From a virus, in the IMG/VR virus record IMGVR_UViG_3300017971_000622: a stretch of 31,161 nt of DNA; one strand, 5' to 3'. The notes below the pieces were generated by a model. That model searched no databases. It saw nothing but the letters and a program-made list of their open reading frames with translations, and had not been told where the DNA came from. Numbering within the stretch: the first letter of the stretch is position 1; every line of letters starts with the position of its first letter. Both the position numbers and the translations under genes were made by a program. Shown piece after piece: positions 11,171 through 31,140 of the stretch.

Positions 11171-11208
11171 ACACTATTGCAACAGCGTCCTCGAAATCCG
11201 GAAAAATC
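11171..11208 (-). promoter_or_regulatory. Copy 1 of the conserved 38-nt promoter-like motif (TTCCGGATTT-N12-TGCAATAGTGTG, minus-strand sense)
   Basis: One of six copies with fixed 12-nt spacing; this one precedes a non-coding structured region. Confidence 0.5.
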
Positions 11209-11286
11209 TACACAAAAAGAAAAGGCCGGACACCTTTCGATATCCGACCTTTCCAACCACGCCAATGACGCAGTCCAATATGTAAT

Positions 11287-11362
11287 TGGTAGCGGGGGCC
11301 AGATTTGAACTGGCGGCCTACAGGTTATGAGCCTGTCGAGCTACCGGACTGCTCCACCCCGC
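11287..11362 (-). tRNA. tRNA-Met (anticodon CAT; possibly elongator Met or Ile2-lysidine type), CCA encoded
   Basis: Minus-strand GCGGGGTGGAGCAGTCCGGTAGCTCGACAGGCTCATAACCTGTAGGCCGCCAGTTCAAATCTGGCCCCCGCTACCA. Canonical 7-bp acceptor, D-arm, anticodon loop CTCATAA and T-loop TTCAAAT. Flanked by an 8-bp inverted repeat TATGTAAT/ATTACATA. Confidence 0.9.
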
Positions 11363-11487
11363 AATCAAATTACATAAAAAAGTAGATACCAATGGTCGCT
11401 AAAAGGGTAATGTCGCACTTGCGACTAACGCTACCGTCTTACCAGTAACGGCCCGATGATTCTCTCGGCGCAACAATATCCGCTTAA

Positions 11488-11559
11488 CCCTGCGGCGGGT
11501 CGCCACGTTCACCCTGTGGCAGGTCGCTACCACCCTTAAAGAGTGGCGGCAGTGTGGCC
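11488..11559. repeat. Tandem imperfect direct repeats (~20 nt, x2-3) between the MVP gene and tRNA-Met
   Basis: CCCTGCGGCGGGTCGCCAC / ACCCTGTGGCAGGTCGCTAC / GAGTGGCGGCAGTGTGGCC. Confidence 0.4.
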
Positions 11560-11716
11560 AGCTTCAACGTCCAAACAGATGGACTCCACTGACCGTTTGC
11601 TTCATTATCTATGAAGTAACCCTTCGCTGAAGTGTATCGCACTTCCATATTTTTCAAAGAACTGCCGGTATATTATACCGGGTTGTAGAGAATGTCCACA
11701 ACTTTTTCAGGAAATT

Positions 11717-28960: not shown

Positions 28961-29000
28961 TACTATTATACACCCACACGAAGAGTCAACAGAAAAAATT

Positions 29001-29690
29001 TCAAGAAACCGTATAGCCTGCGGCCCTGATACAGTCAATCACCGCATCCATATTCATCACCACTCGCTGATGGGTAAGGGTAATTTTGCCATAAAGAACA
29101 CGAATAGTCTTTTTACCATGTTTTTCAAAGGCGTCTCCCTCGGGAACAGCCCACAGTCCTTCCCCATCACGTACGTCCATCTGCACTGGTGTCTTGGTCA
29201 CATATTTGTAACTTGACTCAATAAGCAAACAGAGGGCGTTCAATTGATTCGTGCCCATTTCCTCCAAGGGTAAAAAACTTCCATCTGGAAGTGCGTAAGG
29301 CAAGCCATACCGATTAATATCAGCGGCATTTGAACAACGAGCAAAAAGACGCTTGTGCTTCAGATTGGAACGAAAGCGACTCTGCATTCTGGTCTTAAAT
29401 GCCTTGCCCATTTTTTTCTGAGAAAGGGCATAAATGAATGGAACAAGGTGCAACTTTGATGCCAAATCGCCGGGCTTAAATTTGTAATCCACAACAAGCC
29501 ACAGCGCCCTAACCCAGACATCATTTTTCTCATAGAGGTGTTCCTGCAACTGCTCCAATTCAGTCCGTGTCAGTTCTTTGCTTGCCTCGTTAAGAATTTT
29601 GACCAATTCTTTTATCGCCTCTGCCACCCCGTTGTTGGCTTTCCGTATTACCGTCTCCATGCGCCGTATGTAGCTCCTATGTGTTTTCAT
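29001..29690 (-). CDS. Hypothetical protein, 229 aa
   Basis: ATG at 29690 with AAGGAGA upstream; lower GC than the core. Confidence 0.5.
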   Translation of the reverse strand: MKTHRSYIRRMETVIRKANNGVAEAIKELVKILNEASKELTRTELEQLQEHLYEKNDVWVRALWLVVDYKFKPGDLASKLHLVPFIYALSQKKMGKAFKTRMQSRFRSNLKHKRLFARCSNAADINRYGLPYALPDGSFLPLEEMGTNQLNALCLLIESSYKYVTKTPVQMDVRDGEGLWAVPEGDAFEKHGKKTIRVLYGKITLTHQRVVMNMDAVIDCIRAAGYTVS

Positions 29691-29712
29691 ACCATCTCCT
29701 TCTGTGTTTGAC

Positions 29713-31068
29713 CTACGCTACTATCTGTAGATTTGTTTTTCTTACTTCCTCCAACGCCAACTCCCATGGCAATTTTGTGTTGGATATTTTGAGATATGCA
29801 TCTCTCATCTCTATTTCATTAGATGTAAACCTCTTGCTTTTCTTCATTATGACAGTGTCGGCAGATTTGTTCCTATAGCTCGTGGAAGAACCCTTGCCAA
29901 GTCCCCTCTTCGCAAAAACGATGGCATAAAATGGAACTGCGCTTCGGCCCTTCGAGAGTGCCGCATAATTAAAAAAACCATGCAATACAGCTCTGGCAAA
30001 ACGACGTGCCTCAAAAGCCACAAGCTTGCCCTTGTCGTATTTTGTTGAGATGGACTCTCCTTCTTCTGTCATATACAGAGCAAGATATGCGACTTCACCA
30101 AGGGCCTTCATGCCATTGCTGGAGTGAAGTATGCTATAGAGAGAATCCTCCGCCTGAATAATAGCTTCTCTGATTTTCTCTGCTTTGTCTGATGAGAGTT
30201 CTGACAATACTTTCATGCCTTCCTCTAAGAGGTTGACAATTTCGTTGTGATAAACACTCAAAAATGAAATGCCATTGTCGAACATTTTTTCGAAATAGAG
30301 TAGCTTGTCGTATTTGGATTTTACGGGGCCAAGGTTAGTCAGCTTGCTCAAACAATCCTTAACAGAGCCAAGAGTTGGAGCACTTGCTTCATCACCCTGT
30401 TCGACTCTTGGCTCATAAGGAAGGGATACGGTCTTGTAACCAATTAAGTCGGGGTCAGCCAGCCGCACAGCTATTAAAGAATCCTTACAAGTGCTCACAC
30501 ACTGTCTCTTCTGGTCACTGTCCTTCTGCACGTTTGCGATAGTATCTAACACATTACGAGAAGACTTTTCCAATAAGTCTTCCTTGCGTGAATCATTCAT
30601 GACAGAAGCAGACCTACGAGCATTTTCAATGGAGTCTTCTCGATTCATTTCTATTGGAATTTTCGAATCAAAGCCATAAAGCAATCCCACGAAAGCGCAT
30701 CTGTGCCTGCCTGCCAATAAGTGATTACTGAGAAGGTTGGGTATCTCAACAATCTGCACAGCATTAATAATGCCTCCCCTGCTTATGGCGTCTACGGCTA
30801 AGTCGAGACACTTGGAAATTTTAAGCCTTGCATTTGGTGGATGACACTCATTAAGCTCATCACGATGATTCTTCCTCAGATACCTGCTCGCACTCTCCAG
30901 TCCCTTGGCAGGAATGATACAGTCGTAATCGTCAATAAAAGACAATTCGCTTAACTTCTCTCGTTTTCTGTGAGGATGTCGTGTCAGGAGTGACTCCAGA
31001 GGGGGTAGCTTCTTTAGATGAGTCTTCTTTAACACCATTCTGATGAATTCTTCATTGCCTTTACTCAT
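29713..31068 (-). CDS. Hypothetical protein, 451 aa (LLAGRHRCAFVGLL segment faintly reminiscent of the ParB/Srx GxxRxxA motif)
   Basis: ATG at 31068 with AAGGAGA upstream; AT-richer than the rest of the window. Confidence 0.5.
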   Translation of the reverse strand: MSKGNEEFIRMVLKKTHLKKLPPLESLLTRHPHRKREKLSELSFIDDYDCIIPAKGLESASRYLRKNHRDELNECHPPNARLKISKCLDLAVDAISRGGIINAVQIVEIPNLLSNHLLAGRHRCAFVGLLYGFDSKIPIEMNREDSIENARRSASVMNDSRKEDLLEKSSRNVLDTIANVQKDSDQKRQCVSTCKDSLIAVRLADPDLIGYKTVSLPYEPRVEQGDEASAPTLGSVKDCLSKLTNLGPVKSKYDKLLYFEKMFDNGISFLSVYHNEIVNLLEEGMKVLSELSSDKAEKIREAIIQAEDSLYSILHSSNGMKALGEVAYLALYMTEEGESISTKYDKGKLVAFEARRFARAVLHGFFNYAALSKGRSAVPFYAIVFAKRGLGKGSSTSYRNKSADTVIMKKSKRFTSNEIEMRDAYLKISNTKLPWELALEEVRKTNLQIVA

Positions 31069-31099
31069 ATTAATATCTCCTTTTTAGATTAAGTGGTTC

Positions 31100-31140
31100 C
31101 TTCACTATTGCGAACCACTAGCCAAAATCCGGAAGCAATT
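31100..31140 (-). promoter_or_regulatory. Copy 6 of the conserved promoter-like motif
   Basis: Minus strand: TTCCGGATTTTGGCTAGTGGTTCGCAATAGTGAAGG, ~30 nt before ATG 31068. Confidence 0.5.

Follow-up and report, generated by a model that had tools for sequence, protein, structure and literature searches.

The viral DNA of IMG/VR record IMGVR_UViG_3300017971_000622 was analysed over its full length of 31,161 nucleotides (nt), here called the window, and carries six copies of a two-block sequence motif. This motif, TTCCGGATTT-N13-GCAATAG, spans 30 bases and can be written equivalently as TTCCGGATTT-N12-TGCAATAG; we refer to its two conserved parts as block 1 (TTCCGGATTT) and block 2. Judging the evidence as a whole, we consider it very probable that the motif represents a phage-specific promoter class. 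An original prediction, made by a reader of the sequence alone, had already described it as promoter-like, and much of that description is borne out here, while several of the details attached to it had to be revised.

All six copies were confirmed at the places predicted, each on the minus strand and each matching the 17 specified bases with 0 mismatches (Table 1). When as many as 3 mismatches are allowed, chance accounts for a mean of 0.05 matches (100 dinucleotide shuffles), and the sole additional match in the window (4745-4774, 3 mismatches) seems to be a chance one. Block 1 taken alone also occurs exactly six times, on the minus strand each time. The leader array at 1-7910, said to lack a copy, indeed has none, nor does the whole of 1-11170. 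The hexamer TCCGGA is found 6 times in the window, always inside a motif copy. Palindromes of 6 bp are otherwise depleted in this DNA (197 observed versus 407 expected), and 28 of the 64 never occur, among them GGATCC, CTGCAG, GAGCTC, and CCCGGG. The survival of TCCGGA only within the motif amid such avoidance argues for a functional constraint on block 1.

When metagenomes were scanned for the exact pattern, 118 stretches were found, mostly chance singletons from unrelated samples. Among these stretches was a coherent group of about 30 contigs with a G+C content of 0.49 to 0.57 and the same flanking features, originating from one sample series (Ga0180433-438), SDBT01, and a few other sources. 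The family set used below consists of the window and 29 related loci (about 200 kb), with labels such as L001 and L002 denoting related contigs. As the original prediction had proposed, we searched for further copies and derived a weight matrix. About 45 more copies were identified in the related contigs, so that 41 sites are exact, 11 have one mismatch, and 2 have two. The 13 of about 54 sites that deviate do so by 1 or 2 bases, through the variants T10 to C, A29 to G, and T1 to A or C. The matrix, built from 39 distinct exact-core sites, gives the extended consensus A-n-a-TTT-TTCCGGATTT-C-n-A-G-n-n-y-T-C-y-n-n-TGCAATAG-T-G.

The spacing, claimed to be fixed on the basis of the window, is fixed throughout the family set: GCAAT[A/G]G follows TCCGGATT at an identical distance in 51 of 51 cases, and block 1 never occurs without block 2. 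Upstream of rtcB in three relatives, both blocks are 100% identical while the spacer and flanks have diverged, and conservation resumes with the coding sequence from the ATG on; this alignment is a clear phylogenetic footprint of both blocks. The tmRNA-operon copy in L106 likewise keeps both blocks between diverged flanks.

In IMG/VR and GTDB, the motif is not a recurrent element. IMG/VR gave 0 matches to the exact motif and 26 single matches to a relaxed pattern, in line with chance. Among the 185,579 species representatives of GTDB there were 30 single scattered matches, compared with about 17 by our estimate from the size of the collection; no representative has more than one exact copy, and no host or prophage emerged. 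With GTDB matches at roughly chance level, the motif is, by this measure, not host-derived. A literature search for TTCCGGATTT yielded nothing on phage transcription among the matches listed.

Genes, terminators and ordinary promoters around the motif

All copies are co-oriented with a start codon, a tRNA, or a tmRNA operon a short distance downstream. What follows GCAATAG is a Shine-Dalgarno sequence and an ATG at 13 to 37 nt, an ATG at 6 to 7 nt, a tRNA 5' end, or the tmRNA operon. Copies 1 and 5 stand directly after strong intrinsic terminators, and in the related contigs at least 12 copies follow T-run terminators and 4 follow tRNA 3' ends. Because the motif comes after terminators and tRNA 3' ends, it opens transcription units instead of closing them, and this is where its promoter-like character, as first proposed, finds its support.

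The possibility that the motif is an intrinsic terminator or another 3'-end element of the upstream transcript, which the original prediction had raised, was considered and rejected. The motif has no internal dyad, T-run, conserved structure, or Rfam family, and it lies downstream of bona fide terminators and tRNA 3' ends.

Two statements about single copies held only in part. Copies 1 and 2 had been described as preceding regions that run into tRNA and tmRNA genes. This is correct for copy 2 and the tmRNA gene, but copy 1 lies downstream of tRNA-Met and a terminator; the region free of open reading frames (ORFs) that runs into tRNA-Met is headed not by copy 1 but by an ordinary promoter at 11698-11654. 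Copy 5 does sit directly after a terminator, yet the GTG read as its start codon falls at the predicted transcription start and is probably the 5' end of a leader (GUGAGAG...). A third proposal, that one long transcript enters the array at 1-7910 from far upstream, is unlikely given a strong terminator at 8348-8322. This terminator follows the Ro60 gene; the small-gene array from 8251 to 1 needs a promoter of its own, and in the AT-rich stretch at 8320-8255 neither promoter class was recognisable.

The second of these classes consists of ordinary TATAAT-type promoters, made up of a T-rich tract, a TTGACW or TTGCGY hexamer, and gtGTATAAT. They are present in the window and in relatives L030, L046, L075, L089, L091, and L104, one example from the relatives being TTGCGT-N16-TATAAT. 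Several of them have an ATG exactly 5 nt after the TATAAT (TATAAT-N5-ATG), which suggests leaderless mRNAs in the ordinary class too. In L091, L077, and L123, the motif and an ordinary promoter are arranged in tandem. A scan of the window with the consensus TTGACA-N17-TATAAT picked up 0 of the 6 motif copies, whose -35 match is at most 2 to 3 of 6. The presence of a separate TATAAT class indicates that the motif is not the housekeeping signal of the host.

Predicted start site, leaders and spacer

Transcription probably starts at a purine near motif position 37, 7 nt after GCAATAG. Of 50 non-redundant sites, 9 have an ATG at offset 6 or 7 from GCAATAG (binomial p = 2e-5), and none has one at offsets 3 to 5. 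Position 36 is a pyrimidine in 34 of the 50 sites, and position 37 is a purine in 39. In the three rtcB orthologues, the motif's own TAG closes the frame upstream of the ATG. In L029 and L020 it does so just upstream (plus a TGA in L020), so this ATG must be the start codon, and a Shine-Dalgarno sequence would not fit in front of it. A leaderless mRNA beginning at position 37 or 38 would account for the ATG phasing, the pyrimidine-purine step, and the rtcB frames. By this scheme, some transcripts would be leaderless with the ATG at +1, others would carry a leader of 10 to 36 nt with a Shine-Dalgarno sequence, and transcripts of untranslated RNA operons would begin with a boxA-like antitermination signal.

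Some of the predicted transcripts share their first bases: a conserved initial sequence, GUGAGAGCAA...GACAA, occurs in the window at 25380-25345 and 26435-26410 and also in L041, L019, L059, L086, and L013. The GTG read as a start codon after copy 5 makes up the first three bases of this sequence.

The boxA-like element, GTTCTTTGA(C/A)AA, agrees at 10 of 11 positions with the gamma-proteobacterial consensus GYTCTTTAANA and has G for A at position 8 (PMC5725501). It is found in the window (Table 1) and in L030, L046, L075, L077, L089, L106, and L123; one sequence form is GGUUCUUUGACAA. The exact 9-mer GTTCTTTGA occurs about 16 times versus about 1.5 expected, by our estimate from sequence length. 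The element follows the motif in L046, L075, and L106 and at window copy 1, where it lies at +2 of the predicted transcript. Many tRNA 3' ends are also followed by it, as are ordinary-type promoters, among them the one at 11698. The boxA of rrn operons recurs in leaders and spacers, and the phage element likewise comes after promoters of untranslated RNA and after tRNAs (PMC5725501, PMC7665894). Unlike the rrn consensus, it has G at position 8, and we regard it as an accessory to the motif, not a part of it. This distribution suggests rrn-style antitermination of untranslated stable-RNA operons by host polymerase.

Downstream of copy 1, a perfect 14-bp helix on the minus strand joins 11160-11147 with 10872-10859 (UGACAAUCGGAUGU with ACAUCCGAUUGUCA) and encloses about 290 nt. 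It begins inside the boxA-like element, like the leader-trailer processing stem of rRNA; the overall fold z-score is only -1.3.

The spacer between the two blocks may have a function in translation. Anti-Shine-Dalgarno 4-mers are present in 18 of 50 spacers, compared with a background of 4.8%. Six of 50 copies form a duplex of -16 kcal/mol or lower between their own spacer and leader, versus 1.2 expected from mismatched pairs, and the observed mean duplex energy was reached by 0 of 2000 permutations. In a subset, helices of 7 to 13 bp with covarying arms pair the spacer with the Shine-Dalgarno region 10 to 25 nt downstream, and such pairing is absent from copies that precede tRNA, tmRNA, or other non-coding RNA. 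Read-through RNA arriving from upstream would hide the ribosome-binding site, and RNA started at the motif would expose it, so that the spacer may gate translation at a minority of copies. A comparable device is known from gene e and I-TevI of T4, where a late promoter lies inside the 5' arm of a hairpin that hides the ribosome site and only self-started transcripts free that site (PMC3014915). Like those of T4 gene e, motif-started transcripts would lack the 5' arm. Unlike that one-gene device, the anti-Shine-Dalgarno tendency is built into a promoter class.

Palindromes of a different kind are seen in L019, where two motif copies, at positions 4055 and 10153 of the reverse complement (same as L025), are followed by perfect 15- to 18-bp palindromes (TAGATAGTTACTATCACC/GGTGATAGTAACTATCTA plus a covarying variant) that begin inside block 2. 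No ORF follows for about 140 nt. These palindromes may be an operator over the start site or the 5' hairpin of a small RNA.

Candidate factors that read the motif

The reading we favour, to which we give about an even chance, is that the motif is used by the host multi-subunit polymerase directed by a non-housekeeping specificity factor, most likely a phage-encoded sigma factor of the sigma70 family, perhaps of group-3/sigma-H type. Region 4 of this sigma would recognise TTCCGGATTT at about -36 to -27, while TGCAATAGTG, at about -15 to -6, would be recognised by regions 2 and 3. If +1 is placed at position 37/38, the bases T and G occupy -15/-14, A27 occupies -11, and T31 occupies -7. The original prediction had held the spacing to be incompatible with sigma70. 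The two blocks can, however, be read as TTCCGG-N18-CAATAG or CCGGAT-N17-AATAGT, with TG at -15/-14, which is standard two-block geometry of the sort also seen for sigma-H, and the fixed spacing is compatible with the 16 to 18 bp that the sigma70 family places between hexamers. The suggestion of an element-specific factor has fared better, since the motif differs from the housekeeping consensus. In particular, C25, A26, and G30 are invariant and non-consensus across about 50 sites, which argues that a housekeeping sigma is not the reader of block 2. Phages with sigma or appropriator systems of their own (SPO1 gp28 and gp33/34; T4 MotA/AsiA for middle and gp55 for late promoters) likewise have a host-type class alongside a conserved class of their own. 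Genes for sigma70 and AsiA-like proteins are reported from huge phages (PMC7162821).

Among known sigma factors, sigma-H offers the closest layout. Its consensus is given as (A/G)(A/C)AGG(A/G)WWW-N11-12-RRMGAAW or AGGAWWW-N11-12-RRMGAAW (PMC4754846). Compared with this consensus, which is that of Firmicutes and may not be the host's, the motif has the same arrangement of a heptamer, N14, and a four-base core, and CGGATTT-N14-CAAT matches it at 6 of 7 positions in the -35 element and 3 of 4 in the core. The SigH entries of Clostridioides difficile show the same N14, and the listed sequences end 8 to 9 nt after GAAT (PMC7438776), which would match the start predicted for the motif. Unlike sigma-H promoters, the motif has extra invariant bases in block 2 (TGC...AG-TG), and block 1 reaches 6 bases further upstream.

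Several observations weigh against a dedicated phage sigma. Both mismatches to sigma-H affect bases that are well conserved there (the motif has C for the first A of AGGA and C for the G of GAAT). Together with its T-rich flank, block 1 covers about 16 bp, a long stretch for region 4 of a sigma to read, and the information content of the motif is far above what a sigma promoter typically needs; two proteins could therefore read it. T31, at -7, is T in only 25 of 39 sites. The start site is predicted from sequence statistics, and the use of host core polymerase is likewise our inference, for which the boxA-like elements are indirect support. On the side of the spacer, only a minority of copies (about 6 to 11 of 50) have a strong anti-Shine-Dalgarno hairpin, and that of copy 6 misses the Shine-Dalgarno sequence. 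Finally, the window and about 150 related ORFs, which cover part of the genome, yielded no homologue of a sigma factor, an RNA polymerase subunit, MotA, or AsiA. Searches of the window proteins against Pfam and PHROGs gave no candidate reading factor, the bulk Pfam and PHROGs scans of 150 family ORFs showed none of these factors among the top 25 families listed, and phmmer searches of all ORFs with E. coli RpoD and B. subtilis SigH returned nothing.

The main rival of a dedicated phage sigma, possible but distinctly less probable, is sigma appropriation or a class-II-type activator: host housekeeping sigma would read TGC-AATAGT as an extended -10 element while a phage protein occupies TTCCGGATTT, as in the MotA/AsiA system of T4. 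The centre of the MotA box is near -30, some 12 bp away from the -10 element, and block 1 is similarly placed at about -36 to -27. T23 and G24 fall at -15/-14, AATAGT shares 4 of 6 bases with TATAAT including the -11A, and leaderless ATGs stand 5 to 6 nt from AATAGT, against 5 nt from TATAAT in the ordinary class. A block 1 that exceeds the sigma region-4 site also speaks for a separate DNA-binding protein, as do the T4-like genes of the relatives (gp30.3 at 1e-59, endonuclease VII, and many HNH endonucleases) and the AsiA-like proteins reported from huge phages (PMC7162821). On this model, TATAAT-like variants of block 2 would be expected among about 50 sites, but none occur. Although the geometry is similar to that of a T4 middle promoter, the box sequence is different, and no MotA or AsiA family is among the matches listed. 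The motif matches none of the known phage consensus sequences considered: the MotA box reads TTTGCTTTA, the T4 late promoter reads TATAAATA, and those of SPO1 middle and late promoters are different as well.

A T4-type late promoter was rejected as a candidate: it consists of TATAAATA at -10 with no -35 element (PMC3014915), whereas block 2 is TGCAATAGTG and the upstream block is obligatory in the motif. A sigma-54 promoter was likewise rejected. Its GG and GC doublets are 10 bp apart (TGGCAC-N5-TTGCW), and those of the motif, at positions 5-6 and 24-25, are separated by 17 bases, so that their starts differ by 19 positions.

We think it unlikely that the reader lacks recognisable similarity to known sigmas and activators, or is a new phage polymerase, with the spacer doubling as an anti-Shine-Dalgarno arm. 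Slightly less likely again is a promoter of a phage-encoded RNA polymerase, either single-subunit and T7/N4-like or multisubunit and phiKZ/AR9-like, the latter having been suggested in the original prediction. The very high conservation of the motif and its absence from bacterial genomes are reminiscent of T7-type promoters, the faint resemblance of ...ATAG plus a purine-rich sequence to the ...TATAG of T7/SP6 points the same way, and the source is a giant-phage lineage without cultured relatives. Against such a polymerase stands the layout of the motif, in which a freely diverging, low-information 12-nt spacer splits the two blocks and conservation extends to about -42. Known single-subunit promoters are contiguous over about 20 bp (-17 to about +3 for T7/SP6-like promoters, which we rejected on this ground), and phiKZ/AR9-type promoters are short start-proximal motifs. 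The boxA-like signals after the motif also disfavour a phiKZ-like non-sigma polymerase, and no RNA polymerase-like protein is present in the sequence searched.

A host alternative sigma, for example of Firmicute sigma-H type, which would tie phage genes to the physiological state of the host, is improbable. The sigma-H-like layout (6 of 7 in the -35 heptamer, N14, and CAAT for GAAT) is in its favour, and strong GGAGG Shine-Dalgarno sequences, TATAAT promoters, and the GTTCTTTGA(A/C)AA boxA would fit a Firmicute-like host. Yet key sigma-H bases differ, 0 of the 185,579 species representatives have more than one exact copy, and the near-invariance of about 50 phage sites contrasts with the degeneracy that is normal for promoters of host alternative sigmas.

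Least likely of all is a non-promoter role, either as an oriented, stoperator-like protein-binding site or as an RNA-level processing site or translational operator in the upstream 3' end: asymmetric, intergenic sites in a single orientation and in many copies per genome do resemble the repressor-bound stoperators of cluster A mycobacteriophages, and a subset has the spacer-leader hairpin with block 2 in its loop and covarying arms, but copies downstream of terminators and tRNA 3' ends lie outside the upstream RNA, internal dyad and T-run are lacking, the hairpins are missing before tRNA, tmRNA, and other non-coding RNA as ribosome-site gating would have it, the +6/+7 ATG phasing and the pyrimidine-purine step at 36/37 are those expected of a start site, and several terminator-bounded units have no other candidate promoter.

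Phage lineage, neighbouring features and biological meaning

We read the source of this DNA as an uncultured giant-phage lineage with no cultured relative. Credible genes of the window lie on the minus strand only. Megablast and tblastn searches of cultured phages with the window returned nothing or a tRNA fragment only, and distant relatives of one window protein lie on IMG/VR contigs of 84 to 536 kb. The related metagenome contigs also encode RtcB, NAD-dependent DNA ligase, ribonucleotide reductase, and T4 gp30.3 (match at 1e-59), together with endonuclease VII, many HNH endonucleases, and tRNA arrays. Two PAPS-reductase-like proteins are encoded in the window.

Between 8366 and 16384, the window holds the gene for the Ro60/TROVE protein, the tmRNA and tRNA-Met genes, and long ORF-free RNAs, and RtcB is encoded in relatives L020, L029, and L126. 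The combination of Ro60, tmRNA, tRNA-Met, ORF-free RNAs, and RtcB is a phage-borne gene set for RNA repair and quality control. An Rfam search of the whole window and of two ORF-free regions recovered tmRNA and tRNA-Met alone, with no match to Y RNA or YrlA. The 770-nt leader after copy 2 has a fold z-score of -3.2, with 0 of 20 shuffles folding as well, and belongs to no Rfam family. Just after the tmRNA gene, at about 15192-15047 on the minus strand, is a tRNA-like element with a 7-bp acceptor stem, a T-arm, a GCCA 3' end, and an insertion of about 56 nt, which ARAGORN called (score 88) only when its settings were relaxed and an intron was permitted. This element could be a tRNA that is interrupted or an RNA that mimics one.

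Other genes behind motif copies in the relatives include rtcB, tRNAs, HTH_31, HARE-HTH/DUF6744, an AAA ATPase, and a glycosyltransferase. None of the genes seen under the motif, in the window or in related contigs, is structural; they are auxiliary, RNA-repair, or regulatory. For the 451-aa protein behind copy 6, a set of 1.8 billion representatives contained only 33 remote homologues, with a common GRHR-containing N-terminal region that weakly suggests a ParB/Noc-like (ParB_N/Noc) relationship. A PDB match to a major capsid protein (E = 0.03), which would have made the motif a late promoter, was set aside in favour of this GRHR ParB/Noc-like N terminus of the remote homologues.

An exact protein look-up succeeded in extending the contig for the right-hand part of the window only. 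The right end (31161) is also the break point of L001 and L002, two independent assemblies, and lies 27 nt upstream of copy 6; two other assemblies continue past 31161 into DNA methyltransferase genes. These breaks may reflect strain variation or repeat-induced breaks at the motif.

Table 1. Motif copies, promoters, terminators, boxA-like elements and genes of the window
Feature	Position (nt)	Strand	Remarks
Motif copy 1	11174-11203	Minus	TTCCGGATTT-N12-TGCAATAG, exact; predicted start near 11167
Motif copy 2	16355-16384	Minus	Exact; predicted start near 16348
Leader of copy 2	16348-15579	Minus	770 nt, ORF-poor, structured; runs into the tmRNA gene
Motif copy 3	18253-18282	Minus	Block 2 in its AGCAATAG variant; start predicted at the A at 18246
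Start codon after copy 3	18235	Minus	AGGAGG, then ATG; 381-aa protein
Motif copy 4	25387-25416	Minus	Predicted start G at 25380; begins conserved leader GUGAGAGCAA
Start codon after copy 4	25344	Minus	Shine-Dalgarno and ATG; DUF8317 protein; gene calls in L001/L002
Motif copy 5	26442-26471	Minus	Predicted start G at 26435; precedes PAPS-reductase-like gene
Motif copy 6	31105-31134	Minus	CGCAATAG variant; predicted start near 31098; same copy in L001-L004
Gene after copy 6	31068-29713	Minus	451-aa protein, then 229-aa protein
Intrinsic terminator	11219-11254	Minus	Between tRNA-Met and copy 1; 16 pairs, then TTTTT
Intrinsic terminator	26497-26522	Minus	Adjoins copy 5 upstream; 10 pairs, 7 G-C, then TTTTTTT
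boxA-like element	11166-11158	Minus	GGTTCTTTGACAA, directly after copy 1; then ORF-poor region up to Ro60-like gene
boxA-like element	11662-11654	Minus	
boxA-like element	16106-16098	Minus	
Ordinary promoter	11654-11698	Minus	TGGACA ... TATAATAT, then boxA-like CAGTTCTTTGAAAAA
Ordinary promoter	14550-14585	Minus	ggtGTATAAT; just after terminator 14613-14585; ahead of 373-aa and MVP-shoulder/SPFH genes
Ordinary promoter	17025-17065	Minus	T-rich, TTGCCC ... gtGTATAAT; ahead of ORF-free region 17000-16772
Ordinary promoter	28960-28989	Minus	TTGACT ... gtGTATAAT; ahead of NUDIX/NAMPT genes
Ro60/TROVE gene	8366-10174	Minus	
tRNA-Met	11287-11363	Minus	
MVP-shoulder/SPFH gene	11717-13408	Minus	Major-vault-protein-shoulder
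tmRNA gene	15201-15578	Minus	
NAMPT gene	26538-28007	Minus	Product recognised; NUDIX protein gene alongside

As a kind of finding, a phage-specific promoter consensus is ordinary; the kind is known, and this one is newly found. Giant uncultured phages, however, are known mainly as lists of genes, and their transcription programmes are essentially unknown. Here, sequence has been enough to separate two promoter classes, to predict starts to about one base, and to reveal leaderless genes. Because block 1 never occurs without block 2 in the family set, the motif can be used as a tag for recruiting more contigs of this phage group from metagenomes and for binning them, and it provides a DNA probe with which to look for the cognate factor. 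Should the anti-Shine-Dalgarno arm and the boxA leaders be confirmed, mechanisms of T4 and rrn operons would extend to a distant phage lineage. Were a novel reader and a spacer arm both to prove true, a 30-bp cassette would couple a transcriptional switch with a translational gate across a giant-phage genome and, together with boxA leaders, would also drive a phage set for RNA repair and quality control comprising Ro60, RtcB, tmRNA, and tRNAs.

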